Source of the DNA: Myxococcales bacterium
GTDB lineage: Bacteria > Myxococcota_A > UBA9042 > JABWCM01 > BTVJ01
Direction: 5' to 3'
DNA: 50,377 nucleotides
NCBI GenBank assembly: GCA_045863395.1
Contig: BTVJ01000052.1
Span: 1-50,377, forward strand
Shown: positions 3,750 to 40,985 of the stretch, piece by piece
How the letters are laid out: every line of letters starts with the position of its first letter
Position numbering within the stretch: position 1 is the first letter of the stretch
Program-made: the position numbers and the translations under genes
The notes under the pieces: generated by a model
Databases searched by the model: none
What the model saw: only the letters and a program-made list of their open reading frames with translations
What the model was told of the DNA's origin: nothing

Positions 3750-5242
3750 TGAGCGTCTCCGAGATTGATTCCAGCGAGCAGGCCCCGGCTCGGGATGGAT
3801 CGCAGCGCGTGCCCCCGCACGCCCCAGCGCGAGAGCAGGTGGTTTGCGGCCAGGCGGCCCGACGCGACGGCGCCCTCCATGAGCGCGCCGGGGAAGGGCA
3901 GCTTGACGAAGTCGCCTGCGAGGGCGACGCCAGGGATGGGAGTCGCGGGGCCGGGCCGGTGCGCCGCCGCGCCGGGCGCGAAGGAGGGGCAGTCCCGGGC
4001 CATGAGGAGGCGCTCGTCGACCACGCCTGCGCCAGCGAGCTCGGGATAGAGGCGCGTGGCCTGGGCCCACAGGTCGTCGCGAACGGCGCCCGCGCCGACC
4101 CCCTCGGGGACGGCGTAGGCGTGCAGCTCCACCACGGAGCCCCCCGTCCGGGTCGCCCACGTCCGGGCCTCCTCCTGGAAGCGGTCGAAGAGGGAGACGT
4201 TGTCCAGCAGCCCCAGGCCCGCCGTGCCGGCGAAGGGGGCCCGGTCGGGCCGCGCCCTCTTGTCGAGCCACAGGCGCCAGACCGCGAAGGGCAGCGTGAC
4301 CCCCAGCGACGCGATCTGGCGCCGCCAGCCGGTGTGGTCCAGGTCCGGTGAGGCGTCCACGATGGACTGGAGCGCCGGCACCGTCACCGCCAGGACCACG
4401 GCGTCCGCCTCCAGGGCCCCGACCCGCCACCGCGCAGAAGCCCGCTCTACACGGCTCACCCTCTCCCCCAAGCGGACCGCCACGCCCAGGCCACGGAGCA
4501 GCCTCCCGACCGCATCCCACAAGGACGAGAATGGCTGTGGGAGGACGTCGAAGAGGAGCCCCTCCGGGTTGCCCGTGAAGTAGAAGTGGAACATGCGCAG
4601 GAGCTCCGCTGCGCTCATCCCCCCTTCCGGGTTGAAGAAGGAGTGCGCGAAGACCTCGAACAGCATCTGGCGGGCGCGGCGCGGCAGGTGGAGCGCGTCC
4701 AGGTACTCCGTCGCCGTGACGTGGTCCCACGCGCCAGGGGTCCGATCCGGGTCCCAGGCGAGCATCTCCAGAGCGGTCCCCGGGGCTGAGCGGGCGAGAT
4801 CCCGCAGCCCCACGGTGGGCGTCCGCCAGAGCAGCGCCGGGAGGCCGAGCAGCGGGTGCTGCGGGAGCCCGGCGAAGGACTCATGGCCGTCCGGACCGTA
4901 GAGGGGGTAGTCCGCGAGCGGGACCAGGCCCGCCACCCCCGCGCGACGAAGGAAGTCCCGGAGGTTGTAGTACTGGCGGAAGAAGGCGTGGAAGCCCCGC
5001 TCCATGTGGAAGGGCGTCCCGTCGCCGAGCCGGTCGGGCCACGCGCGGACCCGGCCGCCCAGCTCCGCCTTGGCCTCCAGCAGCGTGACCGAGACTCCCC
5101 GCTCCGCCAGCGCAACGGCGGCGGCGCACCCGGCCAGGCCCCCGCCGACGACCACCGCGGACCGGGGCACGGGCACCCGGGGCAGCCCCCCTGGCGCTGG
5201 GTGCAGCTCGGGGCGGAGCAAGAGACGCGTGAGCTTCGTCAT
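3746..5242 (-). CDS. crtU: FAD-dependent carotenoid phi-ring synthase / isorenieratene synthase-like oxidoreductase
   Basis: VVVGGGLAGCAAA FAD-binding motif, ERGFHAFFRQYYNLR, FAHSFFNPE..MSAAELLRMFHFYF, GGSVVELHAYA, ALMEGAVASG. These are typical of actinobacterial CrtU, and the gene is flanked by a methyltransferase and DUF5914. Confidence 0.8.
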   Translation of the reverse strand: MTKLTRLLLRPELHPAPGGLPRVPVPRSAVVVGGGLAGCAAAVALAERGVSVTLLEAKAELGGRVRAWPDRLGDGTPFHMERGFHAFFRQYYNLRDFLRRAGVAGLVPLADYPLYGPDGHESFAGLPQHPLLGLPALLWRTPTVGLRDLARSAPGTALEMLAWDPDRTPGAWDHVTATEYLDALHLPRRARQMLFEVFAHSFFNPEGGMSAAELLRMFHFYFTGNPEGLLFDVLPQPFSSLWDAVGRLLRGLGVAVRLGERVSRVERASARWRVGALEADAVVLAVTVPALQSIVDASPDLDHTGWRRQIASLGVTLPFAVWRLWLDKRARPDRAPFAGTAGLGLLDNVSLFDRFQEEARTWATRTGGSVVELHAYAVPEGVGAGAVRDDLWAQATRLYPELAGAGVVDERLLMARDCPSFAPGAAAHRPGPATPIPGVALAGDFVKLPFPGALMEGAVASGRLAANHLLSRWGVRGHALRSIPSRGLLAGINLGDAQ

Positions 5243-5964
5243 GCCGCCCTCCGCGCCACGAAGGAGTGCACGATGCCTCGCTGCCAGCCGTCCATGGGCA
5301 GCACCTGCAGGTCGGTGAACCCGGCCTGCCGCAGTCGCCGCTCGAAGCCCGCCGCCGAGTCGAAGCGGAGCACGCTCTCTCTCAGGTAGCGCCAGATGTC
5401 CGCCGTCCCGGCCGCGAGCAGACCCGCCGGGATGATGATCGAGCGGGTGACCGCCTCCCACACGAGGCGGGAGCGCACCGACCCGTCCAGCGCGTACTCG
5501 TGGAAGCAGGCGCGACCCCCAGAAGCCAGCACGGCCCGCACGCCGGCGAGCGCCTCGTCCGGGTCGGGCATGTTGCGGATCCCGTAGGCCATCAGCACCC
5601 CGTCGTAGGGGCCCGTGATCCCGGCGTCGTGCAGGCGCATGGCGTCCCCTCGGACGTAGCGCACGCCCGGGCGGGCCCGGCGTCGCCGCGCGATGTCCAG
5701 CATCCCCTCGGAGGCATCCACCGCGTCGATGCTCGCGTGGGGGATGGCCCGCACGAGCGCATCCGTAGACAGGCCCGTCCCGCAGCACAGGTCCAGGACC
5801 CGGGAGCCCGGCGGCAGCCCCAGCCGCTCGGCGCTCCACCGCAGGTGCTTGCGGTAGCCGGGGTTGAGGCCGGTGAGCAGGTCGTAGGAGGAGGCGACCC
5901 GGTCGAAGTCCTCCGGTACGCGCGCCTTGCGCTCGTCGAATGCTTGGGTCATGGGGTCCATCAC
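5239..5964 (-). CDS. Class I SAM-dependent methyltransferase, UbiE/CrtT-like
   Basis: VLDLCCGTGLST motif I; FDRVASSYDLLTGLNPGY; PMDGWQRGIVHSF; its stop overlaps the crtU start. Confidence 0.85.
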   Translation of the reverse strand: MMDPMTQAFDERKARVPEDFDRVASSYDLLTGLNPGYRKHLRWSAERLGLPPGSRVLDLCCGTGLSTDALVRAIPHASIDAVDASEGMLDIARRRRARPGVRYVRGDAMRLHDAGITGPYDGVLMAYGIRNMPDPDEALAGVRAVLASGGRACFHEYALDGSVRSRLVWEAVTRSIIIPAGLLAAGTADIWRYLRESVLRFDSAAGFERRLRQAGFTDLQVLPMDGWQRGIVHSFVARRAA

Positions 5965-7866: not shown

Positions 7867-9027
7867 TCAGTGCTCGACGAGGAAGTTGGCGCGACTCGAG
7901 ACGCGGAGCTGCACGTGGCCCTTGCCCGCGGGGGCCGTCCCGACGCCGGAGCGCTCGATCCACGACGGTGGGCAGTCGTGGGCGACGCAGATCATGTAGG
8001 CCTCCAGGGGCGGGAGCTCCTTCACGATGGCCGGGGGGATCGTGAAGCTCCCCGTGTCTGGCGCATCGCAGACGACCCGCGCGAGATACGGGCAGCCGTG
8101 GCACTGGTTCGGGGCGTTGATCACGATGCGGACCACGTCGCCCGCTCCAGGCTCCCACGTGAGCGTCGCGCCCGTCGTGTCCGAGAGCTTCAGAGTGCCG
8201 TCCGGGATCGACGTGGCCATGGAGGAGACCCCCTGCGCCACGAGCTCGAAGGGCGGAAGATCCGCCCCGGCGGCGGTCGCCGTGACGGTGGTGGTCGCAT
8301 CGAAGAGGTCCGCGGGCAGGATGTCCGTATAGGTGTAGCCGCCCCCGTAGTCCACGAGCTCGATCGAACCCGGCTTGAGGCCCGCGACCACGAGCTTCCC
8401 TGCAGAGGCGCCCGCTGCCCAGTCCTTGCACGTTCCGCCGCTGGAGCAGGCCTGGCCCCACATGCACGGCGGGTCGCAGAAGCCCGGCTCGAAGCGTGAC
8501 ACCACGCACCCGCCCTGCTCCAGCACCGGCTCCAGGAAGCTGAACGGGGCGTCCTCGGTGAACTGTCCGAGGATCGTGCTGTAGGCGGGCACCTCTCCGT
8601 AGGTCCAGGACTGCTCCAGGATCTCCAGGGTCCCGAGCAGCGGTCCCTGGGGCTCCGGGCCGACGTCGGCGTCCTCGCCAGGGCCCCCGGTGTCCACGGG
8701 AGACCCGCCGTCGGCGGTGTCAGCCAGCGCATCCTCGGGAGGGAGCACGTCGGTGGAGCCCGCGTCCCCCGGTCCGGCGTCCAGCCCTGCGTCCCCCGAT
8801 CCCGCGTCCCCCGGCGCGCCGTCCGGGCTCTCTGCCGTATCGCCCAGTGCGTCGCCTGCCCCGGGTCCCGTATCTCCCCCCGCGCCCGTGTCGCTCGGCC
8901 CCGCTGCGTCTCCACCGACTCCTGCGTCGCCGGCACCGCCAGCGTCGCTCGTGGTGCCGTCGTCCGAGGCACAGCCGGCCCAGAGGACGACCACCGCTGC
9001 CATCAACGTCACTCTCCAATCCTTCAT
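7867..9027 (-). CDS. Hypothetical lipoprotein with long D-A-G low-complexity linker and Cys-containing beta domain
   Basis: Lipobox LWAGC; DAG/GD-rich linker; GGAGG RBS; typical GC3 bias. Confidence 0.75.
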   Translation of the reverse strand: MKDWRVTLMAAVVVLWAGCASDDGTTSDAGGAGDAGVGGDAAGPSDTGAGGDTGPGAGDALGDTAESPDGAPGDAGSGDAGLDAGPGDAGSTDVLPPEDALADTADGGSPVDTGGPGEDADVGPEPQGPLLGTLEILEQSWTYGEVPAYSTILGQFTEDAPFSFLEPVLEQGGCVVSRFEPGFCDPPCMWGQACSSGGTCKDWAAGASAGKLVVAGLKPGSIELVDYGGGYTYTDILPADLFDATTTVTATAAGADLPPFELVAQGVSSMATSIPDGTLKLSDTTGATLTWEPGAGDVVRIVINAPNQCHGCPYLARVVCDAPDTGSFTIPPAIVKELPPLEAYMICVAHDCPPSWIERSGVGTAPAGKGHVQLRVSSRANFLVEH

Positions 9028-9093
9028 CTCCGTCACCTCCAGTGGACGGGTGGCCTTGGCAAGATCGGGGCCAACTCGCGCGGTGGATCCTCG

Positions 9094-11586
9094 TCAGGGC
9101 GCGTACACCATGGCCGCCGTCGCGACCACCGCGCCGTCCGTCACCTCCAGACGCAGGAGCTGACCAGCCCGCCCCGCAAGAATGCTCGGCCCGGCGAGCT
9201 CCGCCACCCCAGCGCCCCTCCCGACGGGCACCTCCTGCGTCCACAGCACGTCGTCGCCCGCCGCCAGGCGCAGGGTCAGGGTTCGAGGCCCCTCGTCGTT
9301 GACCACCCGCGCCTCGACCTGGCCTCCAACCAAGCGCAGCGCCGCCGCCACGGGCGCGTTTGCGGCGGCGACGATGGCGCGGGACCGCTCCACGGCGGCC
9401 GAAGGAACCCGCTCCGGCGCGGGCGTCGAGAAGGGGTAGCCGTTCTCGGGTCGCTCCCAGGACAGCACCCCCAGGAAGCCCGCCCCCTGCGCCCACTGCC
9501 ACCGGGCCTCGAAGACCTGCGAGGCAAGCCAGTGCGCGGCGACGAGGGCCCCCACGCTGGCCGGGTCCTTGGGATCGCCCTCCACTGCCGGCCGATCCCC
9601 CAGGAAGTGGGCCTTGGCGAACGCGATCAGCTCGGCGTCGGGGCCGGGCGCCACCTCCGCGACGCACGCAGGGACGCGCGGGAGCGACACGCCGTTCTCC
9701 CGCAGGCACCACAGCGCCGCGTAGAACTGGCGGAGCGTCAGGGACGTTCCGTTCGGGGCCTCGAGCCACCCCTCGATCTCGGCGCGCAGGGCGACGAGCG
9801 GGGGAGGTGACGCCGGCTCCAGGGTGTCCTCGAGGGCCGCCAGGTAGGCGAAGTGCTTCGTCCAGCCGTTGCCCAGCTCGCTCCACAGGACCGGGAGCGG
9901 CCCCTCCGCCAGGCCCTCGACCCGCGCGGGCAGGTCCCCGTACCCGTCCCAGGGCTGCCACCAGGACCCGAAGTAGGCGTGGCGGTCTGCAAGCGCTTCG
10001 TCCAGCGACCACGCGGGGTCTGGCGGAAACACCGCGGTGCCCCCACAGCCGGAGCACCCGATGACCACGAGGTGGGGAGCGATCTCCTGCGCCACTCCCA
10101 TCAGCGAGCCGATCAGGCTCCGGCACCAGGCGAGCTCGGCGGCGTTGGTCTCCCCGATCTCCGCCTCGTTGTGGATGGCGATGATGGCCACGGCCGGCTC
10201 TGCGGCCACCCGCCACAGGAACTCGGTGAACTCCCTCGTGATGTCGAACTTGGTGCCAACCCCCACGGACGTGTTCCAGTGCAGCGGGAAGTCCTGGTAC
10301 AGCAGGAAGCCGGCCGCCCGCGCCGCCCTGAGGAAGGCCGGGTCCGGCACGTGGTGGGCCGGGCGCAGCCACTGGGCGCCCACCGCTCGTGCCTCCCCGA
10401 GCAGCGCCGCGTACCGAGGCAGCAGCTCCTCTACCGACGCGTAGGTCATGGGCGCATACGGCCCGCTGAAGGGCGCGAGGCGGAGCCCGTGGTAGGTCGC
10501 CGCCCCCCGGGCGAAGTGGCGCTCCTCGTTGACCTCCAGAGAGGAGCCCACCAGCCGCACGCGCCGGTTGACGAGGGGAGTGGTGCGCACGTCGGACACC
10601 CGCCCCTCGTGCCGGAGCGTGACCTCCACCGTCGCCTCCTCGGTGCCACCCACCGGCACGTCAGCCAGCCCCTCCACGACCACCTCCACCAGGAGCCGCG
10701 CCCGCCCGTCCCCGTCCAGTGTGGCCTGGCGCGACTCGGTCAGCAGCGTCCCGCCCGACGGCGCGGTGAGTGTGATGTCCGCGGTGACCTTCGCGCCCTC
10801 CAGCTCGTAGCTCCCCTCCGCCTCCAGGCCGACACGCACGCGCGTCGCCGAGCCCTCGCGGGAGACGGGCGCCGCGTACAGGTGGGGCAGGCTCACCGGC
10901 CCCACGAGGCGGAGCCGGACGCTGCCCGGGAGCCCCACGGGGTTGACTCCCCACCCACCCTCGTCGGCGCCCTGAACGGTGCGGTGGCGGAAGCGCTCCA
11001 TGCCACCCCAGTGGTCGACGTCGTGGACGAAGTCCTGGACGAGCACCTCGATCCTCCCGGGGGAACCCCAGGGCACCGGGGCGGAGAAGGACCCGATGTA
11101 GCCCCGGTGGCGGCCCAGCTCGACCCCGTCCAGCAGCACGACGCTCTGGTAGTCCGCGGACTCGAGCTCCACGATCACCTGCGTGCCTGGTGGTGGCGCG
11201 CACGCCCACTCGACCGGCCACGTCAGGTCCCGCTCGTAGGCGACCTGCCCGGCAAGCTGGGCCTTCGGGAAGCGGTCGTAGGGGAGCAGCCACCCGGGCA
11301 CCGCGACCGACCCGAGGGCGTGTGGCTCCGCGCTGTCGAAGTAGTCGACCCCCTCTTCTTGTCGGTAGGTGGCGCTCCAGAGCCCATCGAGGCTCACGGT
11401 CCGCGGGACGCCAGCGGGGCACGGGTCCGCGGCACCAGCGTCAGCGTCGCCCGGCACCTGGGCTGGTGCGTCCGGCGTGCCTCCGTCCAGCGCGGCGGCG
11501 TCGGTGGGCTGCGGGTCCTCGATGACGCCCCGCCCTCCACACGACCCACACACGACCACCGCCGCCACGCACCAATGCAGCCTCAT
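9094..11586 (-). CDS. Glycoside hydrolase family 2-like lipoprotein
   Basis: Lipobox [42 protein letters not shown]; acid/base IHNE; nucleophile WSELG. Confidence 0.75.
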
Positions 11587-11658
11587 GCGCCACCTCTGCC
11601 CCTGGGACCCGCCCTGCATAGGGACCCACGATACCACACGCACGCGCGAGCAGCGCCG

Positions 11659-11688
11659 TTGACACGGCGCCCCCGCGCTGGGTATCGT
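11659..11688 (+). promoter_or_regulatory. Candidate sigma70 promoter TTGACA-N18-TATCGT, with the -35 box inside an inverted repeat
   Basis: TTGACA at 11659-11664, TATCGT at 11683-11688; GCGCCGT-TGAC-ACGGCGC at 11653-11670. Confidence 0.5.
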
Positions 11689-11847
11689 CGACGTATTCAG
11701 ACAGTGACTGCCCTCGCGGAGCACCTTCCGGGCGCGCCGCCAGGCGTCGAGGCCCCGCGGTGGGGCCCGCCCGCTTCGGTCCCCGCAGCCGAAGCCGACT
11801 CAACTGCCACCCCACCCATCGTTGATGGTGGGGAGTGGAGCGATAGC

Positions 11848-13719
<1,872 letters not shown>

Positions 13720-16039: not shown

Positions 16040-17377
16040 CTACTCCTGCGCCATCTGGCGCCCGATTGCCAGCTCCAGCGCCGCGCGGGCGACGAGGTGT
16101 GCCCGCACCGCCTCGGCGTGGCTGTGGCGGGCCTTGGTGTACGCGGCGAGACCCTCCAGGAGGTCCCGCGCCTCGCCCGTGCCCGCGCTGTAGGCGACCT
16201 CGGCGAAGGTCATCCACTTGCGGGTCGCCTGAGCTCCCTCCGCGGCCAGCTCCGCGCTGCGGCGAGTCTCCGTCACCTGCTGCCACGCGCGGCGCACCTC
16301 CAGGGGAATGCCCGTCTCCGCGACTCGCGCCTGGGCCGCCACCTGCTCCGCGGTGGCGCGGGCGCCGCCGGCCTTGGCAGTCGCCAGCGCGGGGTCGAAG
16401 TCCCAGCTCAGGCCCAAGGCCACGCCGCCCGTGATCCCGTTCCAGGGGTCGGCCAGGTAGGGGTTGGTCGTGTCCTCGCGGGTCGGGGTCCAGTCCATGC
16501 GCACCTGCGCCGCCGCGAAGAGCACGGGGTGCATGGCCCGCAGCTCCGCCTGCTCCCACCAGCGGGCTGCGACGAGGCCGTCCGCCGCCTGGTCGAGCTC
16601 TGGCCGCCCTGTTCGCGCTCTGGCAACGAGAGTCACCAGGTCCTCCGTCTCGTCGGGAGGCAGCGGCGGGAGGCGGTCCTCGGCCAGAGCAGGCGGATGC
16701 TCGAGCCCCATGAGGTGCGCCAGGGCCCACCACGCCAGCTCCGCGCCGCCCTCCGCCTCGATGCGTGCACGCTGGAGCTCGACGCTGGCCGCTCGCAGGC
16801 GCTGCCGGTCCGCCTGGGTCACCTGGCCCGTGCCCTGCTGGTACAGCTCATCCGCGCGCTGCTCCGCGCGGTGCAGCACCTCCAGCGCCGCGTCCAGTGT
16901 GGGGAGCAGCGTCAGCGCGAACAGACGTGCATAGTAGAGCTCGCGCACCTGAAAGGCGACGCGGAGGCGCGCCTCCAGGGCCCGCGCGCGCTCCACGCGG
17001 ATCCGCCCGCTCGCCGCCTCCTCCGCGGCCGCCGTCCGGCCGAAGGTCCACAGGGGCTGCACGACGCGCGCCTCCACGTGGAGGGTGGTGCCCCAGTCCT
17101 CGATGCTCTTCCACCGCGTGGTCACCGCGCGGTCGAGGCCCGTGCCCTCCACCGTGTAGTTCGGGGCGACCCAGAGCAGCGCACCGATCTTGGGCGCGTA
17201 GACGGACCCCACCTCGTCGAGGCGCGCGTCCCACTCCCGCACCCTGGCATCGGCCAGCTCCACCGCAGCGCTCTCGCCCACCGCAATGCGCACGCAGTCG
17301 TCTACGTCCAGGGGGGCCTCGCGGCCCCTCGCTCCGACACACAGCAGCCCGAGGACCAACGCAGCCGCGGGCCTCAT
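16040..17377 (-). CDS. TolC family outer membrane efflux protein
   Basis: Signal peptide; QPLWTFG, VRELYY, RPEL, LGLSWDF, AEVAYSAGTG, ARAALELAIG; ATGA overlap with the upstream gene. Confidence 0.85.
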   Translation of the reverse strand: MRPAAALVLGLLCVGARGREAPLDVDDCVRIAVGESAAVELADARVREWDARLDEVGSVYAPKIGALLWVAPNYTVEGTGLDRAVTTRWKSIEDWGTTLHVEARVVQPLWTFGRTAAAEEAASGRIRVERARALEARLRVAFQVRELYYARLFALTLLPTLDAALEVLHRAEQRADELYQQGTGQVTQADRQRLRAASVELQRARIEAEGGAELAWWALAHLMGLEHPPALAEDRLPPLPPDETEDLVTLVARARTGRPELDQAADGLVAARWWEQAELRAMHPVLFAAAQVRMDWTPTREDTTNPYLADPWNGITGGVALGLSWDFDPALATAKAGGARATAEQVAAQARVAETGIPLEVRRAWQQVTETRRSAELAAEGAQATRKWMTFAEVAYSAGTGEARDLLEGLAAYTKARHSHAEAVRAHLVARAALELAIGRQMAQE

Positions 17378-18000
17378 GGAGCCGCCCCGTGGCGTGCGCG
17401 CTCCTCGTCGAGGCGCCTCTCCAATCGCGAGATGAGGGCCGCGGCCCCCTCTCTCTCCAGGATGCGTCCGAACTGGTTCCGGTAGTCCGCCACCAGCGAG
17501 TCGCCGTCGAAGCTCACGTCCACCAGGAGCAGGGGGCCGTCGCCCCGCGTCCGCCAGTGGAAGATGACGTCCGTGTCGAGGTCCTTGCGGGGCACGCGCG
17601 CTGCCATGTGGACGTCTGCGCCGCCAGCCGTCTCCACCTCCCGCAGCGTCCAGGTCGCCTCGCGGAAGAAGCCCCCCGCGTTGGACCAGGCCACGGTGCG
17701 GATCAGCTCCGTGAAGACCTCCCGGTAGCGACGGAGCTGGGGCGCGTCGAGCTTCCCCTCGTGGGGCGCCATGGGGTCGCCCACCAGGCGGTCGAAGTCG
17801 AAGTACCCGTCGAGGGCCGCCAGGGCGAACTGGTTCTGGCGCTGCTCCTCGGGCGTCAGCGGCGCTCCCTCCGAGCGGTGCACGGCCTTGAAGGTCTCGA
17901 TGAGGCCCTCGGTGCGTGCGATGGAGCCCCCCGGGGGGGCCGCCGCGACGAGCGCGCCGAGCAGGGCGCCGAGCATGGGTTCTACGAGGCTGCCCATCAC
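17374..18000 (-). CDS. MlaC/Ttg2D (HpnM-like) periplasmic lipid-binding protein
   Basis: Signal peptide; LDGYFDFDRL, YREVFTELI, LVDVSFDGDSLVADYRNQFGRILEREGAAALISRL (MlaC C-terminal signature). Confidence 0.82.
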   Translation of the reverse strand: MMGSLVEPMLGALLGALVAAAPPGGSIARTEGLIETFKAVHRSEGAPLTPEEQRQNQFALAALDGYFDFDRLVGDPMAPHEGKLDAPQLRRYREVFTELIRTVAWSNAGGFFREATWTLREVETAGGADVHMAARVPRKDLDTDVIFHWRTRGDGPLLLVDVSFDGDSLVADYRNQFGRILEREGAAALISRLERRLDEERARHGAAP

Positions 18001-20852
18001 CCACCTCCCAGGGCGCCGCCTACGAGACGCAGGCACAGGAGGAGCGTCCCCGCCAGCAGCCCCGCGAGCAGGTCGTCTCCCATGACGCCGACGCCACCGT
18101 GCACGCGCGCGTCCACCACGCGGATCGGGCCAGGCTTCAGGATGTCGAACGCCCGGAACAGGACGAAGGCCGCGATGACCCAGAGCGGGGTCCACGGCAC
18201 GAAGGCGAGCGCCAGGAGGCAGCCGAAGAGCTCGTCGAGGACCACCTCCTGGGGGTCGTTGCCCCCACCGCTCCGCCGCATGTACCGATCGATGACCAGG
18301 ACCGCCGCCACCGAGCCGGCGCCGATGACCCCCGCCCACACCCACCATGAGGAGCCGTGCAGCAGCGCCGCCACCGGCAGCGCCATCACGGCCCCGAAGG
18401 TGCCGGGCGCCCGCGGCGACAGGCCGAGCAGACCGACGGTGGAGATGCCCTGGACGATGCGCTGGCCGCGTGGCCCCCTGTGCTTCAGCGCCTCCAGCAG
18501 GGCGGGCAGCACCACGAGGCACACGATGAGGTTGACGGCCAGCCCGAGGAGGATCAGCCGGGCGATGGAGGTCAGCCCCTCGTGGTCGGCGACCAGCAGG
18601 GCCGCGAAGCCGAGGCCGGTCGTCAGGAGCGAGCCCGTGATGCCGCGGCCGGTCTCGTCGATGATCGCCGGCACGGCCACCCCGGCCCGGTGACGCACCA
18701 GCACGTGGAGGCCGCCGTCGAGGCTCATGCCGACCAGCGCCGGCAGCATGACCACGTTGAGATAGTTGAGCTCGGCGCCGCAGAGCGGCATGAGCCCGAA
18801 GGTCGCCATCAGCGTGACGACCGCTGGTGCGAGGCCCAGCAGCGCGAAGCGAAGGCTCCCGAGGAGCAGCCACATGACCGCGAGGCTCACCGCGATGGTC
18901 CCGAGCAGCAGGCGAGGCGCCTCGGACTCCACGATGTCGAGGACGTCGGCGAGGATCATGCTCTCTCCAGCGACCTGGGCGCCGTCCACGCCCCTCACCG
19001 CGCCGCGCACCTCACGCGCAAGCCGGCGCACGGCGGCCCCGTCGCTCTGGTCCACGCTGGCGAAGAGCAGCACGAAGGCGCGGTCCAAGGTGCCGTCCGG
19101 GCGCTGGAACTGGCGGAGCACCTCTGACGGGAGCCCATCGACGGTGAAGGGCCTGGCGCGGGCCTGGACCCGCAGGTCCTCCAGGCGTTCCCGATCCTCG
19201 GGCGCCAACCACCGGGGCTTCACCCTGTCGAGGGCCCGCGTCAGCCGGTCCAGCTCCGCGCGCTTCTGCTCCTGGTCCGGGGGCACCAGGTCCGTGACGG
19301 TGGTGGCGAAGTCCACGGTGGCGGCCCCCGACTGCGCGAGCTTCCGCGCGATCCTGCGGGCGTCGGCCTCCGAGCCCGTCATCACCACCATGGGCGTCTG
19401 GGAGTAGCCGAGCAGGCGGTTCACCTCCTCGTCCAGGCGGAAGGACGGGAGCCCCCGCGACTGGAGCGCCGTGAAGTTCTGGTCGAAGTGGAGCGCGCCC
19501 TGGTTTGCCATGAGCAGGGCAAGGCCCAGCGCCCCGGCCCAGAAGAGGGCCGGTGACCACCGGGGCATGGCGCGGGCCAGGGAGGACGCGGGCCGGGCGC
19601 GCAGGGAGACCGCCCTGCCGAAGAGTGACAGCAGGGCCGGCAGGCAGAGCCCGTAGGCGGCGACGATGGCGAGGGTGCCGAACGCCGTCAGCACGCCGAA
19701 CTCCCGGAAGGCGCGGAAGGCCGAGAACGCGAGGCTCGCCAGGGCCGCCGCGGTGGTCAGGGACGCGAGCAGCACCCCGCGACCGGTGGTGCGGAAGGCC
19801 GTTGCGATGGCCTCTGCGCTCGGCGCGCCGCGAGTCCGCTCCAGCTCGTAGCGTGTGAGCAGGTGGATGCCGTGGTCGATGCCCAGGCCGAGCAGGATGA
19901 CCCCCGCAAACGCCGTCAGGATGTTGAGCTGCCCGAAGGCAAAGCCCGCAAGCCCGAACATCCACACCAGGCCCGTCGCCAGGGGGGCGATGACCAACGC
20001 CACGGCGCGGAGGCGGCGGAAGTGCACGGCGAGGTAGGCGAGCATCAGCGCCAGCGCCAGCGTCGACGAGATCCCTAGGTCCTTGGACAGCTCCTCCTGC
20101 TGGTCGAGGCGCTTCGGGAAGCGCCCGGTGAGGCCGACGCGCGCGCCGGGGCCGTAGGCGGCCATGTCTAGGCTCGTGACCAGCGCGCGCGCGGGCTCCA
20201 CCACCTCGCGCGTGAGCGCCAGGTCCGAGGCGCGCCCCTCGGGTCGCGCCATGACGGCGACCATGCCGTCGCCGGTGTAGAGGTCGTGGCGGCCAATGCG
20301 CCGGATCCACTGGCTGCCCGGCGCCTCGATCTCGTCGCGCTGCTCCAAGGCGAGCGGGGGCGGCGCGTCCTCCAGATCCACGAACATCGGGTTCTGCTTG
20401 CGGCGCTCCCAGGCGATGCGGGCCTCGACGCGGTCCGTGAGGTCTCGCAGGTCTGCGAGGGGGAGGTAGTAGAGCGCCCGGTCCCGGAAGAACGCGACCG
20501 GTCGGCGTGAGTCGACCCAGCGGATGTGCGGCAGCTCGGCCAGGCGCCGCGCCACGTCGTCCGCGAAGGCGTGCTGGCGGCCCGGGTCCACGTGGGTGCC
20601 GACGACCGTGACCGTGCCCACGCCCCCGAAGCGATCCTCCATGGCGCGGAGCGCGGTGACGCTCTCGTGGGACTCGGGCAGCGCGCTGGTCAGGTCCGTG
20701 TCGAGGCGCAGGCGGGACGCCCCGACCAGCGCGACTGCGACCAGCGCGGCGGCTACCGCCAGGATCGCCCACGGGTGCCGGTGCCCGCGGGCGGCGAGCG
20801 CCGACAGCCAACCGTCCACGCGCGGGAGGAAGCCGGTGTCCGCGGTGCCCAT
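17997..20852 (-). CDS. MMPL/RND lipid transporter fused to a C-terminal PgpA (phosphatidylglycerophosphatase A-like) domain
   Basis: MMPL TM4 GLGIDHGIHLL and TM10 GMSLDGGLHV. The last ~150 aa carry PgpA motifs GLSPRAPGTFG, DPQEVVLDE, FRAFDILKPGPI, GGVGVMGDDLLAG in the same frame. Confidence 0.88.
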   Translation of the reverse strand: MGTADTGFLPRVDGWLSALAARGHRHPWAILAVAAALVAVALVGASRLRLDTDLTSALPESHESVTALRAMEDRFGGVGTVTVVGTHVDPGRQHAFADDVARRLAELPHIRWVDSRRPVAFFRDRALYYLPLADLRDLTDRVEARIAWERRKQNPMFVDLEDAPPPLALEQRDEIEAPGSQWIRRIGRHDLYTGDGMVAVMARPEGRASDLALTREVVEPARALVTSLDMAAYGPGARVGLTGRFPKRLDQQEELSKDLGISSTLALALMLAYLAVHFRRLRAVALVIAPLATGLVWMFGLAGFAFGQLNILTAFAGVILLGLGIDHGIHLLTRYELERTRGAPSAEAIATAFRTTGRGVLLASLTTAAALASLAFSAFRAFREFGVLTAFGTLAIVAAYGLCLPALLSLFGRAVSLRARPASSLARAMPRWSPALFWAGALGLALLMANQGALHFDQNFTALQSRGLPSFRLDEEVNRLLGYSQTPMVVMTGSEADARRIARKLAQSGAATVDFATTVTDLVPPDQEQKRAELDRLTRALDRVKPRWLAPEDRERLEDLRVQARARPFTVDGLPSEVLRQFQRPDGTLDRAFVLLFASVDQSDGAAVRRLAREVRGAVRGVDGAQVAGESMILADVLDIVESEAPRLLLGTIAVSLAVMWLLLGSLRFALLGLAPAVVTLMATFGLMPLCGAELNYLNVVMLPALVGMSLDGGLHVLVRHRAGVAVPAIIDETGRGITGSLLTTGLGFAALLVADHEGLTSIARLILLGLAVNLIVCLVVLPALLEALKHRGPRGQRIVQGISTVGLLGLSPRAPGTFGAVMALPVAALLHGSSWWVWAGVIGAGSVAAVLVIDRYMRRSGGGNDPQEVVLDELFGCLLALAFVPWTPLWVIAAFVLFRAFDILKPGPIRVVDARVHGGVGVMGDDLLAGLLAGTLLLCLRLVGGALGGG

Positions 20853-20862
20853 GGCCGCTCCT

Positions 20863-22068
20863 TCAGGGGTGCCGGGTCGGCGCCGTCACGAGCGGGGCGC
20901 CCAGCGGCAGCCAGCTCTTGCGCAGCGGAACGCTCCACGTGATCGCGATGGCCGCCCGCGCCAGCGGCCACGCCACGACCAAGGGCACGCCCGGCAGCGC
21001 CGTCAACAGCCCCACTCCTCCCCCCGCCAGCAGGGCCGTGGAGAGCGAGAGCTGCGTGAAGCGCCGCTCGGCCAGGGCGCCGTGGTTGATCGTGAACTCG
21101 GCCACGGCCCCGAAGGCCACCCCGACCATGGTCGCCAGGCTCCCGGCGAGCCCGAAGCCCGTGACCAGCGCCGCGACCAGCAGCGCATCGGAGGCGAGGC
21201 CGAAGGCCATGGACGTCACGGCGCGCGCGCGTCGCCCTGGTCGCGGCAGCAGGTGCCCCTTCTGGCCCAGCGCCCTCAGCCCGAACAGCAGGCGATGGGC
21301 TGCCGTGAAGTTCGTCGACGCCGCGAGCAGCACGATGCCCGCGATGGCGAGTCGGTGGGGCGGGTGGGGGTCCGCCGGGGAGACCAGCGCCTCGACGATC
21401 GGGGACAGGGCGACCGCCGCCCCCAGGTACACGATGCGCTCGGTGCGCTGCATGAGGCCCACGTCCTTCATGGCCAGGTGCAGCCCCTCCGCCCGGGCGC
21501 GGATGTACGGCACCAGCATGGAGCCGACCAGGGCCAGGAGAACGGCGAGGAGGACCCAGCTCTCCCGGTAGTACCAGGCGAGGCCGGCGAGCACGGCGGC
21601 GTCGCTGATCCGATCCAGCACGGAGTCCAGCAGCGCGCCGCGGGAGCCTGCCTGGCCCGTCGCGCGGGCGATGCGCCCGTCGAGGAAGTCACAGATGCCC
21701 GCGAGGACGAACAGCCACCCTCCCAGCGCGAAGCGCCCCGCCGCGAGGGACACGCCGGAGCCCGCGGCGAGGAGCACGGAGAGCATGGTCACCACGTTGG
21801 CGGGGATCCCGACGCGCAGGGCCCCGTCGACGAGCGGCCGCACGAGCCACACGAAGTACTGGCGCACCCACATGCCGACCAGCACGCTGGACCCGCGGGA
21901 CTCCACCTCCGCGTCCCGGAAGCGCCCCCGCAGGTGACAGCGCACCGCGTAGACGGCCATCCCGCCCAAGAACCAGAGCAGCAGCAGCACCGCGGGCGCG
22001 ACGGCCGTGACGACACGGTCGGCGGGCGTCAGCTCGCCGCGCACCATGCGCAGGAACCACTCGGTCAT
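20863..22068 (-). CDS. CDP-alcohol phosphatidyltransferase (PI-phosphate synthase-like) with C-terminal GtrA-like domain
   Basis: Signature DFLDGRIAR...GALLDSVLDRISD; YIRARAEGL and GLMQRTER as in PIP synthases; C-terminal four-TM GtrA-like segment (GAVAEFTINH...TWSVPLRK). Confidence 0.85.
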   Translation of the reverse strand: MTEWFLRMVRGELTPADRVVTAVAPAVLLLLWFLGGMAVYAVRCHLRGRFRDAEVESRGSSVLVGMWVRQYFVWLVRPLVDGALRVGIPANVVTMLSVLLAAGSGVSLAAGRFALGGWLFVLAGICDFLDGRIARATGQAGSRGALLDSVLDRISDAAVLAGLAWYYRESWVLLAVLLALVGSMLVPYIRARAEGLHLAMKDVGLMQRTERIVYLGAAVALSPIVEALVSPADPHPPHRLAIAGIVLLAASTNFTAAHRLLFGLRALGQKGHLLPRPGRRARAVTSMAFGLASDALLVAALVTGFGLAGSLATMVGVAFGAVAEFTINHGALAERRFTQLSLSTALLAGGGVGLLTALPGVPLVVAWPLARAAIAITWSVPLRKSWLPLGAPLVTAPTRHP

Positions 22069-23015
22069 GTGGAGCCCTCCTCTGCGGGGGTGAGCGCCGC
22101 GTGAGGCCCGTGGGAGACAAGGGCGTGGCCGGCGATGGACACCCCCCAGGCGACCAGCCCGGTCACGACGCCCATCACCACGTCGAGCACGTAGTGGTGG
22201 CCGAGGTACACGGCGGCGAAGGACACGACGGCGGCGAAGACGGCGGCGAACCACACCAGGCCCCGGCTGACCCCGATGACCGCGCAGAGCGCGATGACGG
22301 TGTAGGCGACGTGCAGCGAGGGCATGGCGCCGAAGACGTTGGCGCTGCGCGCGTAGTAGGACGCGAAGTACGTGGTGCCGAGCAGCGCGTCGAAGCGCGC
22401 GGCGCCGGCGGCGCTCTGGGCCGCGTCCAGCACGGCGGGGCCGAGGCCGTGCTCCTCGACGTACCAGGGGGGCGCCGCGGGCCAGACCAGCCACGTGACC
22501 GTCCCGATGGCGTGCATCACGAGGAAGGCCCACGCGAGGCGCGAGGTGCGATCCCGGTGGCGCCCGCCATGAAGGAAGAACAGCCAGATCCCGAGGACGG
22601 GGGGCCACGCCACGTAGGTCGCGTAGGACAAGCCGGTGACCAGGTCCAGTGCGGGCGTGTTGTGTTCGCCGAACCAGGCGGCGAGGGTCTGCGGACCGTC
22701 GGGTCCCGGGGCGGAGAACAGCGCCACCTCTGCGTGGTAGAGGTCGGCGATGTGGATGGGACCTCGCAGGGGCTCCAGGTAGTGGAAGGCCTCGTAGGTC
22801 ATGCCGCCGAACGCGAAGGGGGCGGCCAACATGCTGAAGCGCCGCGCCGTCGGCCCCGCCCAGGCGGTCACGACGAACAGCAGATCCAGGGCCAGGTGCT
22901 CGAACCGGGCGCCGAAGGTCAGCTCCGTCAGCAGCAGGTGCCCGGGGAACAGGATGGAGGCCGCCCACCGCCACCAGAGGCCCGCCTCGGGCGTCCCGGA
23001 CTCTGGCCGCTGCAT
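22065..23015 (-). CDS. Aur1/Ipt1-like inositol phosphotransferase (IPC synthase-like, PAP2 superfamily)
   Basis: PAAPPWY, FGAMPSLH and YLGHHYVLD match the conserved domains of fungal Aur1; GGAGG RBS before ATG 23015. Confidence 0.85.
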   Translation of the reverse strand: MQRPESGTPEAGLWWRWAASILFPGHLLLTELTFGARFEHLALDLLFVVTAWAGPTARRFSMLAAPFAFGGMTYEAFHYLEPLRGPIHIADLYHAEVALFSAPGPDGPQTLAAWFGEHNTPALDLVTGLSYATYVAWPPVLGIWLFFLHGGRHRDRTSRLAWAFLVMHAIGTVTWLVWPAAPPWYVEEHGLGPAVLDAAQSAAGAARFDALLGTTYFASYYARSANVFGAMPSLHVAYTVIALCAVIGVSRGLVWFAAVFAAVVSFAAVYLGHHYVLDVVMGVVTGLVAWGVSIAGHALVSHGPHAALTPAEEGST

Positions 23016-23061
23016 GGCCACCCTCCGCGCCGTTCCCTGTGACGCGACGCGTCACCGCTTC

Positions 23062-23237: not shown

Positions 23238-24458
23238 GTGCGAACCGTCACCCAACTGGCCCTCGCGGGGCTCTTGTGCCTGCTCCCCTCGCTTGCTCGC
23301 GCCGAGCTCGGGGTCTCCGCCGAGCTGGACCCCGACCGGGTCGAGGTGGCGCTGCTCCCCGGGGTCACGGTCAGCACGGAGACCGGCTTCGGCTTCGGCG
23401 TGCTCGGCGCGGTGGCCGGCTTCGAGCCCGGGTACACCCCCTACCGCTGGCGCCTTCAGGCGTCGGTGCAGCTCAGCGTGCGTGAGGGGCCCGACGGCGA
23501 CGTGGAGTGGCCCGTGCAGAGCTACTGGCTCCTCTTCGACCTGCCGGAGCTCGGCGCGCGCTGGCTCCGGCTCAGCGGGAAGGTGGGGTACAGGCAGCAC
23601 GCGGCGCTGGGGTGGTACGGCATCGGCAACGGGTCCAGTGACTCACCCCCTGCCCACGCCGACGGGGGGCGGTGGTTTCGCTACGAGCGCCTGTTCCCGG
23701 AGGCCACGGTCATGCTGCGCGCGCGGCTTGGCGGCGAGCTGTCCGTCTTCGGGGGGGCGACCTTCTCCTACAGCCAGGTGACCGTCGGCGAAGGGCGCCT
23801 CGCCATGGACCTGGACGACGACCCGCGTTCCCTGCTGGTCGGTGCCCGTCCCCATGGAGACGCGTGCCTCCGGGTGGGGCTGATCTACGACTCCCGGGAC
23901 CACGAGACGTCGCCGACCCGCGGCATGCTCCACGAGGTGGCCCTGGAGGCCGGCGCGGGGCTCGGCGAGTCCTTCGCCTATGGGCGCCTCCACGCCCAGG
24001 CGCGCTTCTTCGTGCCCATCGCGGGGCGGCGCCTGGTCGTGGCGGCGCGCCTCCTCGCCGACGTGATGGTCGGCGAGCCGCCCTTCTACGAGCTGTCGCG
24101 GATGGGCGGCTCCAACCCCGTCGACGGGCCGGCCGGGGCGCACGGGATCCGCGGCGTGCCGGCGCAGCGCTACGCCGGGGAGGTCAAGCTCGTGGGCAAC
24201 GTGGAGCTGCGCAGCCACATCGTGGGCTTCGAGGTGGGAGAGCAGCGCTTCACGGTCGGGGTCGCGGCCTTCGCGGACGCGGGGCGGGTGTTCGCGGAGC
24301 TCACGGAGGCCCACCCGGGCCTGGACGGGGGCGACCTGAAGCTCGGCCTCGGCGGGGGGCTGCGCCTCGGGTGGGGCGAGACCTTCGTCGGGCGCATCGA
24401 CGCCGCGTGGTCTCCGGACGGCGTGGGCTTCTACGCCCTGGCCGGGCACCCGTTCTGA
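23238..24458 (+). CDS. Omp85/BamA-TamA superfamily outer membrane beta-barrel (no obvious POTRA domain)
   Basis: Signal peptide; YDSRD..SPTRG, GIRGVPAQRY, GNVELR, FADAGRV, GGGLRL; C-terminal Phe. Confidence 0.85.
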   Translation: MRTVTQLALAGLLCLLPSLARAELGVSAELDPDRVEVALLPGVTVSTETGFGFGVLGAVAGFEPGYTPYRWRLQASVQLSVREGPDGDVEWPVQSYWLLFDLPELGARWLRLSGKVGYRQHAALGWYGIGNGSSDSPPAHADGGRWFRYERLFPEATVMLRARLGGELSVFGGATFSYSQVTVGEGRLAMDLDDDPRSLLVGARPHGDACLRVGLIYDSRDHETSPTRGMLHEVALEAGAGLGESFAYGRLHAQARFFVPIAGRRLVVAARLLADVMVGEPPFYELSRMGGSNPVDGPAGAHGIRGVPAQRYAGEVKLVGNVELRSHIVGFEVGEQRFTVGVAAFADAGRVFAELTEAHPGLDGGDLKLGLGGGLRLGWGETFVGRIDAAWSPDGVGFYALAGHPF

Positions 24459-25387
24459 TGGCGCGCCTCCTCGTGCTGTGCCTGCTGTTCGGGGCGTGCG
24501 GGGGCCTCTCTCCCATCCGCGGCCCCTTCGACGCCGCTCTGGACGTGGTCGACCGGCCGCCCGCCAGCGACGGCCGCCGCGTCTCGGTGGACGGCGCCTG
24601 CAACGGGCACGCGGCCCTGTGCGAGCGGCGCTACGACCAGGTGGCCTTCGCGGCGACCCACAACGCCATGTCCAGCGCCGACGAGGGGTGGTTTCAGCCC
24701 AACCAGCAGCATGCGCTGAGGCGGCAGCTCGACGACGGCGTGCGCGCCCTCCTGCTCGATACCCACTACTCTGGGGGGCGCGTCTCCCTCTGCCACGGCG
24801 TCTGCGCTGCCGGGCGTTCGCCGTTGAGCGACGCCCTGGCGGTCATCGCTGGGTTCCTGCGCGACAACCCGCGGGAGGTCGTCACGCTGATCTTCGAGGC
24901 CCATGTGTCTGCGGCGGACACGGCGGCGGAGATCGCCCGCGCGGGCCTGCTCCCGGCCGTCTACACGCACCGCGGCGCGTGGCCGACCCTCGGGGAGATG
25001 ATCGCCACGGGCCGCCGCCTCGTGATCTTCACCGAGCGGGGAGGAGGCGCGCCCCGGTGGTACCACGACCTGTGGGTCCACGCCTGGGAGACTCCCTACC
25101 GCTTCGGAGGCTCAGGAGACTTCACCTGCGGGAAGAACCGGGGCACCGAGGGGGCCCCGCTGTTCCTGCTCAATCACTTCGTCACCCCGGTCTTTCCGAG
25201 CCTGTCCGCCTCGCGCGAGGTCAACCAGTGGGCCGTCCTGGGCGCACGGGCGCGGGAGTGTCAGCGCCGCTCCGGGCGCCTCCCCAACTTCGTCGCGGTG
25301 GACTTCTACGCCACCGGCGACCTGCTCGCGGTGGTGGACGCGCTCAACGGGGTCGCCACGATGGGCTCCGCGGGCGCCGCTCCCTGA
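24458..25387 (+). CDS. PI-specific phospholipase C-like phosphodiesterase lipoprotein
   Basis: Lipobox LFGAC; CNGHAALC, THNA, NQ..QLDDGVRALLLDTH, LCHG, NPREVVTLIFE, LLNHF, PNFVAVDFY; TGATG overlap with the Omp85 gene. Confidence 0.82.
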   Translation: MARLLVLCLLFGACGGLSPIRGPFDAALDVVDRPPASDGRRVSVDGACNGHAALCERRYDQVAFAATHNAMSSADEGWFQPNQQHALRRQLDDGVRALLLDTHYSGGRVSLCHGVCAAGRSPLSDALAVIAGFLRDNPREVVTLIFEAHVSAADTAAEIARAGLLPAVYTHRGAWPTLGEMIATGRRLVIFTERGGGAPRWYHDLWVHAWETPYRFGGSGDFTCGKNRGTEGAPLFLLNHFVTPVFPSLSASREVNQWAVLGARARECQRRSGRLPNFVAVDFYATGDLLAVVDALNGVATMGSAGAAP

Positions 25388-25498
25388 TCGGGTCCTCACG
25401 CGGTGCCGGCCCTCGGGCCGGCCCCACGTGCTCCCGCCTGGACCCCGCTCGCCCCACCGTGCGACACTCGCCCCCGGCCCGCGGGGGACGAGGCGGTC

Positions 25499-25948
25499 AT
25501 GGTGCTGGAGCTTGCCTCCCTGGTGGTCGTCGGCCTGGCCGGGACCGTGCTCTGGGTCCTGAACCCGGAGGCGGCGGCGATCTTCTACGGGGCAGAGCTC
25601 GAGTGGAGCCCGCCGGTGGTCGGGCTCGTCCTCGGCGCCTCCCAGGCGCTCTCATACGGCGTCATCTTTGGCTTCGGCGAGGTGCTCGTTCGCCGCTGGA
25701 GCTGGCTCGCGCGCAAGGTGGAGTCGACGCGCGCCCGGTACGCCTCCCACCTGGAGAGAAACTACCTGCTGATGAGCTTCTCGGGGGCGGTCACGGGACT
25801 CCCCCCCATCATCGCCCTGACGATCCTGGCGGGCGGCTTCGGGGTGCCGCTCCGCCACTTCCTCCCCGTCTGTGCCGCAGGCCGAGTGATCCGCTTCACG
25901 GTCCTCGCCGCCGTGGGCAGTGGGCTCTTGGAGTGGTGGCGAGGGTGA
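25499..25948 (+). CDS. DedA/VTT (YqaA-like) membrane protein
   Basis: Hydrophobic; NPEA, GLPP..LAGGFGVPLRHF...GRVIRF. Confidence 0.75.
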   Translation: MVLELASLVVVGLAGTVLWVLNPEAAAIFYGAELEWSPPVVGLVLGASQALSYGVIFGFGEVLVRRWSWLARKVESTRARYASHLERNYLLMSFSGAVTGLPPIIALTILAGGFGVPLRHFLPVCAAGRVIRFTVLAAVGSGLLEWWRG

Positions 25949-40880: not shown

Positions 40881-40985
40881 GGCCTCAGTGGAGCACAATT
40901 GGAGCGGGACGTCGACAATCGCCGCGCAGTGTGTCGCTGTCACGGCGAGGAGGCCGTCGATGCGTCCAACGCCCGCTGACCCCCG

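Follow-up and report, generated by a model that had tools for sequence, protein, structure and literature searches.

A myxobacterial MMPL-family transporter fused to a PgpA-family phosphatase in a candidate inositol-lipid operon

The window, a stretch of 50,377 nucleotides from a Myxococcales bacterium, contains a reading frame in which an MMPL/RND transporter runs into a PgpA-family lipid phosphatase. This raises the questions of whether the junction is genuine, which lipid phosphate the appended enzyme removes and whether removal is tied to export. We consider it reasonably likely (probability about 0.6) that the product is a bifunctional inner-membrane protein in an operon for making and exporting inositol lipids. 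In the literature searched, partly by title and the beginning of the abstract, we found no description of an MMPL–PgpA fusion or of an RND-linked system for inositol-lipid export.

The fusion gene is real

The gene and its parts are arranged as follows.

17997..20852, minus strand: MMPL–PgpA fusion gene (P0001), one open reading frame of 951 amino acids
18483..20852, minus strand: transporter body, HpnN-like MMPL/RND, residues 1–790 (Pfam PF03176)
19875..19877, minus strand: D326 in TM4, aligned to HpnN D344
19539..19565, minus strand: TM7 motif PRWSPALFW, residues 430–438
18459..18488, minus strand: basic linker LKHRGPRGQR, residues 789–798
18030..18446, minus strand: PgpA-family phosphatase domain, residues 803–941 (PF04608)
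18231..18257, minus strand: DPQEVVLDE, with D866, D873 and E874 equivalent to Escherichia coli PgpA D86, D93 and E94
18132..18158, minus strand: FRAFDILKP, with R900 equivalent to E. coli PgpA R121, and with D903 and K906
18060..18077, minus strand: DDLLAG, with D926 and D927

The frame, for which the sequence-only reading gave no strand, has no internal stops, and AlphaFold models the whole protein with a pLDDT of 93.1 and a pTM of 0.89. The transporter body has the two-repeat, 12-helix fold, two periplasmic domains and TM4 aspartate of MMPL/RND proteins, and matches PF03176 in two stretches (128 bits). At position 326 all 39 fused homologues have D, and all 36 unfused ones have D or E; its HpnN counterpart, D344, is the conserved RND proton-relay aspartate (PMC10466384). 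PF04608 is matched with 115 bits (cut-off 28) over profile positions 2–140 of 141, the whole domain. The acidic motifs named in the sequence-only reading are all present (DPQEVVLDE at 866–874, FDILKP at 902–907 and DDLLAG at 926–931), and D866, D873, E874, R900, D926 and D927 are kept in 39 of 39 fused homologues. Mutation of the catalytic residues D86, D93 and E94 abolishes the activity of E. coli PgpA (PMC13148334). By sequence, the PgpA domain matched no solved structure (best single match E = 0.3). The span from P783 to T805 varies from 20 to 41 residues among 39 fused homologues, and the linker is presumably cytoplasmic. The acidic motifs sit in lysine- and arginine-rich loops, and from this and the helix count of the model the catalytic site would lie on the cytoplasmic side; the active site of E. 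coli PgpA is cytoplasmic (PMC11629553 and PMC13148334).

A stop codon lost, or contigs misjoined, in this one genome could produce such a frame, and a distant locus (L156) does have the two genes adjacent and in the same frame with a single stop between them. This artefact is already refuted by the unchanged junction in other runs, by fused homologues and by congruent trees, and its probability is close to nil. The region 18450–18500 is bridged, without stop or frameshift, by assembled contigs (rather than raw reads) from four of four runs, which come from four studies, exclude small-share runs and include none suspected to be where the window came from (X6, 18216–19432; X8, 17300–18570; X12, 17300–18789; and the RNA-library run X15, 18354–18527). 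Over 18351–20294 these runs' contigs have no insertions, deletions or listed substitutions, and the third-position G+C content is 0.86–1.00 in all 19 full 50-codon blocks, including the junction. When residues 740–951 were used as the query and the best 8,000 candidates were scored, all 21 matching homologues of 523–1,665 amino acids (43–94% identity) had both PF03176 and PF04608. Finally, of 17 well-supported splits in the tree of the PgpA domain, 16 are also found in that of the MMPL part (Mantel rho 0.55, reached in 0 of 999 shuffles). The in-frame fusion proposed earlier is thus real, and a lost stop or assembly error is excluded. Relatives do not always encode the domains separately, the outcome that would have told against the proposal, but many lack the fusion: a fused PgpA was not detected at 50 of the 75 subfamily loci.

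Parts of the gene are covered by RNA-library contigs, from which neither transcription nor a single transcript follows. A scan for promoters and terminators gave no signal exceeding that of shuffled sequence.

A putative inositol-lipid operon and the candidate substrate

The fusion gene is flanked by the following genes.

22065..23021, minus strand: AUR1/BT_1522-like inositol-phosphate transferase (PAP2_3, PF14378), first gene of the operon
20863..22068, minus strand: PIP-synthase-like CDP-alcohol phosphotransferase whose C-terminal part is GtrA-like
17374..17997, minus strand: MlaC/HpnM-like periplasmic lipid carrier (PF05494; TIGR03481 weak), its start overlapping the stop of the fusion gene
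16040..17377, minus strand: TolC-like outer membrane efflux protein (PF02321), its start overlapping the stop of the MlaC-like gene

The AUR1-like gene scores 175 bits against NF052609, below the cut-off of 480, and matches yeast AUR1 with E = 1.5e-13. The PIP-synthase-like protein has mycobacterial PIP synthase (6h5a) as its best structure (E = 1.7e-20) and shares 48% identity over its length with a protein of locus L046 that carries Pfam GtrA; it is the equivalent of BT_1523 plus BT_1524. Bacteroides thetaiotaomicron BT_1522–1526 (PMC9246714) therefore shares with this genome an AUR1-like gene, PIP synthase, GtrA, a PgpA-family phosphatase and MIPS, the first four in the same order. The arrangement here differs in that PgpA is fused to the MMPL transporter and GtrA to PIP synthase, in that MlaC-like and TolC-like genes follow the fusion gene, and in that MIPS is unlinked (C4:205783-207150).

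Across the subfamily, in counts in which kin are not independent here or elsewhere, the 25 fused loci contain a CDP-alcohol transferase of this kind in 23 cases, the AUR1-like gene in 12, MIPS in 11, and MlaC-like and TolC-like genes in 9 each. The AUR1-like gene occurs at 15 of 75 loci, each of which also has a PgpA, and at none of 27 well-flanked loci without PgpA. Unfused loci adjoin the transferase in 26 of 50 cases and MIPS in 14 of 50, and the transferase is missing at 13 of the 27 well-flanked ones. Locus L166 has AUR1-like, MMPL and transferase genes together, with PgpA unlinked. Divergent Omp85, PI-PLC-like and VTT genes were rejected as parts of the system (they recur in one, one and no related loci, respectively), as was the NTP-transferase bypass of PMC9246714 as an account of the unfused loci, with matches in four loci and few explained.

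Knockout of BT_1525 leads to accumulation of PIP-DAG and loss of PI-DAG and PI-DHC, with other glycerophospholipids unaffected (PMC9246714). The PgpA domain here occurs with the same partners, PIP synthase, AUR1-like gene, GtrA and unlinked MIPS. Because the operon amounts to the BT_1522–1526 module with an exporter added, a PIP phosphatase of the BT_1525 kind is the most likely identity of the domain, and PIP was also the substrate proposed from sequence alone; this assignment rests on gene context, and BT_1525 was not included in the PgpA trees. The further proposal that PIP-ceramide is a substrate found no support: PIP-DHC appears nowhere in PMC9246714, and it is PIP-DAG that builds up in the BT_1525 knockout, where PI-DHC is lost. 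No serine palmitoyltransferase reaches the curated cut-off in this genome (among 8 of 15 PF00155 matches tested) or in five other fusion genomes, so ceramide as an acceptor is putative.

Alternatively, the domain could make phosphatidylglycerol, as a PGP phosphatase, ordinary or with two uses, whose gene was joined to the one next to it. The genome has PgsA (C3:98227), and the fusion's domain is its only PF04608 match, which favours this alternative; no YqeG/Gep4-type phosphatase was found, and the other candidate phosphatases are one further PAP2 and three DSP matches. The domain is 38% identical to E. coli PgpA over 121 residues with D86, D93, E94 and R121 shared, and PMC8791184, in which BT1525 could not be deleted, predicts it to be a PGP phosphatase. 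Yet 89 of 107 genomes of the class have no PgpA match, which indicates that PgpA is not the housekeeping enzyme of the class. MIPS is present in 16 of the 18 genomes that do have PgpA, versus 42 of the other 89. The neighbours are inositol-lipid genes, and at no locus did a gene match the genome's own PgsA at E < 1e-10. The domain also scores 82 bits against the E. coli-type equivalog PRK11068, under the cut-off of 226. E. coli PgpA is a stand-alone protein encoded in the thiL operon and places outside the fused clade. We give the PGP explanation little credence and favour PIP.

A TM7 motif that tracks the fusion

The most fusion-specific of 769 alignment columns are W438 and P434, both in the TM7 motif. 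Of the proteins that are fused or degenerate, 40 of 44 have this motif, versus 0 of 51 unfused ones, and in held-out proteins the counts are 7 of 11 versus 2 of 41; independent contrasts, few in number, all point the same way (4 of 4, p = 0.125). Whole or recognisable, it also precedes an intact PgpA in proteins of 691, 613, 546, 344, 257, 237, 224 and 214 amino acids. Because the motif tracks the fusion and survives in these eroded remnants, the comparison suggests that it is a putative docking site for the phosphatase domain. The 237-residue remnant folds as a two-helix hairpin followed by PgpA at low confidence (pLDDT about 57–68, pTM 0.67). A two-chain prediction of body (8–790) and PgpA domain (797–949) scored 0.00 and weighs neither way.

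The trees suggest a single old fusion with repeated loss since, with support for one origin varying by tree (92; 39; 92/85). The fusion persists at about 40% divergence, the phosphatase has become detached on repeated occasions, retaining no more than a helical remnant, and catalytically dead tails occur in the L048 second copy, L093, P0149 and P0191, some on intact transporters. In L107, L116 and L122–L124, long ‘PgpA’ frames turned out to overlap other genes (low upstream third-position G+C) and were rejected as fusions. The family offers a natural series of adjacent genes, full fusions, dead tails, eroded remnants and unfused transporters in which the benefit of enzyme–transporter fusion can be probed, with the TM7 motif as a precise target for mutation.

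Coupling, cargo and known transporters

In the reading that we prefer, inositol phosphate would be made by MIPS and then used by the neighbouring PIP synthase, on the cytoplasmic leaflet, to form PIP-DAG. Removal of the phosphate would fall to the fused PgpA domain, whose docking at TM7/TM12 would leave the acidic site exposed to the cytoplasm; this step would yield PI, which may reach the outer leaflet via the GtrA-like part or the transporter. There the AUR1-like enzyme could place inositol phosphate on ceramide or another acceptor, and the proton-driven MMPL protein would pass on PI, or what the AUR1-like enzyme makes, by way of the MlaC-like carrier and TolC-like protein to the outer membrane. 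Fusion would set the last cytoplasmic step beside the exporter and fix the enzyme-to-transporter ratio, with no obligatory gate. The data themselves show the fusion, the intact catalytic and proton-relay residues, the operon, the co-inheritance and the correlation of the motif, whereas substrate, topology, docking, cargo and the order of steps are inferences.

The sequence-only reading had instead coupled phosphate removal to export so that only matured lipid is loaded. Physical integration is supported by the motif that tracks the fusion; the obligatory gate is weakened. Strict channelling, in which the phosphatase hands fresh PI straight to the transporter for flipping and export, is compatible with the position of that motif in TM7, given that PMC10466384 places lipid between TM7 and TM8 of MmpL3, with the fixed domain arrangement that the whole-model pTM allows and with the long maintenance of the fusion. 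The predicted cytoplasmic site, however, fits poorly with loading of MmpL3 from the outer leaflet after flipping, as described in PMC10466384, and with lipid entry at TM1 of HpnN (bioRxiv 352443), and the two-thirds of loci without a fused PgpA, the split-off phosphatases and the dead tails all argue against it; we regard it as unlikely. A further reading, doubtful but worth stating, gives the RND transporter a maturation enzyme of its own: PgpA docked at TM7 beside the TM7/TM8 lipid groove would feed new PI directly into proton-driven flipping and export through MMPL protein, MlaC-like carrier and TolC-like channel, which would supply the myxobacterial outer membrane with inositol lipids or with inositol sphingolipids, and dead tails on intact transporters would act as PIP sensors that tune export. 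Lastly, the phosphatase might act on PIP while the transporter moves another lipid, a sterol or general phospholipid, the fusion merely tying two co-regulated genes. The closest characterised relatives do carry hopanoids and sterols, an unlinked gene of this genome scores best as an oxidosqualene cyclase, making sterol possible, and the transferase is absent from nearly half of the well-flanked unfused loci. A full-length cyclase domain, however, occurs in only one of five other fusion genomes, the recurrent neighbour clusters contain no cyclase, the protein scores well under the HpnN and BstA cut-offs, and unfused members still adjoin transferase and MIPS genes. This separate-cargo account also seems improbable to us, and we retain the inositol-lipid reading.

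If that reading holds, MMPL protein, MlaC-like carrier and TolC-like channel would deliver inositol lipids to the outer membrane, a candidate route for a step that PMC9246714, whose main text does not contain the word ‘transport’, does not cover. MMPL cargo would extend past hopanoids, sterols and mycobacterial lipids, and the PgpA fold would have a second, independent candidate case as a PIP phosphatase. In myxobacteria and relatives, an exporter is joined to an enzyme that probably completes inositol-lipid synthesis.

Among known transporters, HpnN (PDB 5KHN) is the best solved relative by both sequence and fold. The two share the 12-helix MMPL/HAE-3 fold (Foldseek E = 1e-24), equivalent residues at D326/D344 and T744/T745 (T818/T819 in HpnN), and an HpnM/MlaC-like partner. 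Identity to HpnN and to the sterol transporter BstA (PMC10942540) is about 20%, with scores of 274 against 752 (TIGR03480) and 149 against 1,100 (NF052374) for HpnN and 146 against 1,400 (NF045600) for BstA. Unlike both, the fusion has an extra five-helix phosphatase domain and adjoins inositol-lipid rather than triterpenoid genes, with no hopanoid synthesis genes among the recurrent neighbours of subfamily loci; in place of BstB/BstC-type neighbours it has MlaC-like and TolC-like genes. MmpL3, the trehalose monomycolate exporter, is likewise an MMPL protein with a TM4 aspartate and a lipid exporter, but is 13–15% identical to the fusion's transporter, has no fused enzyme and works in another type of envelope.

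The fused transporter–phosphatase gene

The fusion is encoded in a single frame:

17997–20852, minus strand: MMPL–PgpA fusion gene, 951-codon frame with the PgpA part at its 3′ end

Pfam places MMPL within the first 790 residues of the product and a complete PgpA domain at residues 803–941 (115 bits against a cut-off of 28), and the linker and three acidic motifs described in the sequence-only reading are present as written there. G+C at third codon positions is 0.86–1.00 with no drop across the MMPL/PgpA junction, which is bridged without any change by assembled contigs in four of four runs from four studies. Residues 740–951, compared with proteins of 523–1,665 amino acids, gave 21 matches, all 21 with both domains (43–94% identity), and when 1.84 billion cluster representatives were compared by a word-free HMMER search, the PgpA part recurred in 20 of the best 150 matches. 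This is a real fusion, and an old one.

The transporter and phosphatase halves both look functional. D866, D873, E874 and R900 align with D86, D93, E94 and R121 of Escherichia coli PgpA, alanine mutants of which are reported to have lost or greatly reduced activity (PMC13148334); all four residues of the fusion, and likewise its D903, K906, D926 and D927, show no variation in the alignment of fused proteins (39 of 39). The transporter part retains D326, the aligned counterpart of HpnN D344, an aspartate described as common to MmpL3 and AcrB (PMC10466384), and its T744/T745 align with HpnN T818/T819. HpnN structures are the top fold matches to an AlphaFold model built with 75 sequences (pLDDT 93.1, pTM 0.89).

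Among 769 transporter columns, W438 and P434, at the start of TM7, best separate fused from unfused proteins (frequencies of 0.93 versus 0.04 and 0.88 versus 0.02, respectively). Of the fused or degenerate proteins, 40 of 44 carry the combined motif, against 0 of 51 unfused ones. Held-out representatives, which share under 80% identity with that first set, carry it in 7 of 11 fused and 2 of 41 unfused cases (Fisher P = 7.5e-5); independent pairs all point in the same direction (four of four), too few for significance (P = 0.125). Proteins of 214–344 amino acids retain the TM7 helix, a second helix and a basic linker before PgpA. From these patterns we infer that the phosphatase may sit on a surface formed by TM7 and TM12.

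Occurrence and history among relatives

Scanning species-representative genomes yielded 79 loci, most of them from records whose titles name Myxococcota or Deltaproteobacteria; locus counts cover 75 of them (L033–L107), excluding the four most distant (L108–L111). The locus, class and phylum sets overlap, and related genomes are not independent in the counts. The matched gene carries a fused PgpA at 25 of the 75 loci and not at the remaining 50, among which contig ends truncate two, one has a degenerate tail and in one the gene is broken. At the 25 fused loci, many of which are incomplete, we found the transferase at 23, AUR1-like genes at 12, MIPS at 11, and MlaC-like and TolC-like genes at 9 each. 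Wherever an AUR1-like gene occurs (15 loci), PgpA is present too, and the 27 well-flanked loci that lack PgpA have no AUR1-like gene; one exception, L166 (outside the 75-locus count), has its PgpA elsewhere in the genome. Within the class of the window's organism, PgpA is confined to 18 of 107 genomes, and MIPS is found in 16 of these versus 42 of the other 89. In a stricter first look at a phylum sample of 401 genomes, at least seven of the matches listed run stop-free to the model end.

In the MMPL tree, unfused and fused transporters are interleaved, with eight changes of state. In the PgpA trees, fused domains and remnants group together, separate from the E. coli enzyme and the majority of stand-alone copies. 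A quick tree supported this group at 92, a rerun at 39 and a 79-row bootstrap tree, from which near-duplicates, fragments and degenerate rows were removed, at 92/85. The MMPL tree also recovers 16 of the 17 PgpA splits that are well supported among 41 fused proteins. Decay has gone in both directions: in L115, L125, L074 and L082, PgpA is intact and what remains of the transporter has no periplasmic domains (L074 and L082 also have a second, intact MMPL alongside), and in L048 (second copy), L093 and the proteins P0149 and P0191 the transporter persists with a tail in which the acidic residues are missing. A single old fusion followed by repeated loss fits best, short of proof. In another genome (L156 of G109, 7973–11825), transferase, MMPL and PgpA are consecutive; a single stop separates MMPL from PgpA, which share a frame and both fall outside the fused clades. 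This is possibly an earlier, pre-fusion state.

Other arrangements were also seen. Two divergent unfused MMPL paralogues stand back to back at L056, L057, L076 and L106, three of the four having two CDP-alcohol transferases plus a dual-specificity phosphatase nearby and three a PhoD-like gene; another phosphatase may be in place of PgpA there. At L066, L068, L074, L075, L082 and L085, a type I phosphodiesterase/nucleotide pyrophosphatase gene adjoins the unfused MMPL. A second inositol-lipid module at L116, L119 and L120 comprises MIPS, a Gfo/Idh oxidoreductase, a class III aminotransferase, a transferase and a stand-alone PgpA, with a distant MMPL also present at L116 and L120, and is possibly an amino-inositol lipid pathway.

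Operon, cargo and proposed route

The fusion belongs to an operon of five minus-strand genes, overlapping or closely spaced, which also includes:

22065–23021, minus strand: AUR1-like PAP2_3 gene, best structure match yeast AUR1
Between the AUR1-like gene and the fusion, minus strand: CDP-alcohol transferase with a GtrA-like tail, closest to mycobacterial PIP synthase
After the fusion, minus strand: MlaC/HpnM-like gene, then TolC-like gene (profile matches)

The MIPS gene of the genome is on a separate contig, away from the operon. A second TolC-like and MlaC/HpnM-like pair lies on contig C96 (L128, 9612–11707), with no MMPL within the 12.6 kb examined. Next to the operon and divergent from it, 23238–25948 (plus strand) encodes Omp85-family, PI-PLC-X-like secreted and VTT/DedA-like proteins, each with paralogues elsewhere in the genome and seldom present in related loci. 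The window also encodes a protein bearing type 1 (spondin-like) and type 3 thrombospondin repeats (11851–13719, plus), a class I lysyl-tRNA synthetase (PF01921; 31488–33077, minus), a cardiolipin-synthase-like phospholipase D protein (39435–40943, minus) and methyltransferase, flavin oxidoreductase and Rieske/DUF5914 genes (2757–5964, minus), a group that we take to resemble a carotenoid-modifying cluster.

All acidic motifs are predicted to be cytoplasmic, both from a helix count that starts where TM12 ends in the cytoplasm and from the bias of the loops towards K and R; the same is predicted for E. coli PgpA (PMC11629553). Lipid is described as bound between TM7 and TM8 of MmpL3, after the flip (PMC10466384), and entry into HpnN has been proposed at TM1 (bioRxiv 352443). 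Most likely, PIP would be made on the inside and dephosphorylated by the fused PgpA domain; the product would then be flipped and, with or without conversion by the AUR1-like enzyme, exported. By analogy with PgpB, AUR1-type enzymes would face outward. The sequence-only reading had phosphate removal from PIP or PIP-ceramide physically coupled to export, with only the matured lipid loaded; we retain its chemistry, drop PIP-ceramide and replace obligatory coupling with local coupling.

Deletion of BT_1525, the PgpA-family PIP-DAG phosphatase of Bacteroides thetaiotaomicron, is reported to abolish PI-DAG and PI-DHC and to cause PIP-DAG to accumulate, leaving other glycerophospholipids unaffected (PMC9246714, which also cites ceramide phosphoinositol of Myxococcus xanthus). 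A second study reports that BT1525 could not be deleted and predicts PGP activity (PMC8791184); PGP as the substrate is still a live alternative here because the genome has PgsA, and so is a sterol cargo because it has an oxidosqualene-cyclase-like gene. Serine palmitoyltransferase (SPT) gave no match above cut-off among 8 of the 15 PF00155 matches of the genome or in five other fusion genomes. On contig C2 (L154, 3687–12502), an NAD-dependent reductase is followed by a fatty acyl-AMP ligase and a 2,286-amino-acid PKS with KS, AT, ACP, KR, DH and, last, an oxoamine-synthase-like domain; frames of 2,165–2,236 amino acids with such a domain are also present in the genomes G048 and G060. This ligase and PKS could be a long-chain-base source, a candidate where a clear SPT is absent.

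The individual parts are already known; of the MMPL–PgpA architecture and its inositol-lipid link we found no description in the open-licence papers searched. Characterized members are given as HpnN, BstA and the mycobacterial MmpLs (PMC10942540, PMC11713862, PMC8277102). The profile scores of the fusion are far below the cut-offs of both the HpnN and BstA families; the transporter is therefore HpnN/BstA-like in its working and a member of neither. Together with the unlinked MIPS gene, its operon repeats the BT_1522–1526 inositol-lipid cluster of B. thetaiotaomicron.
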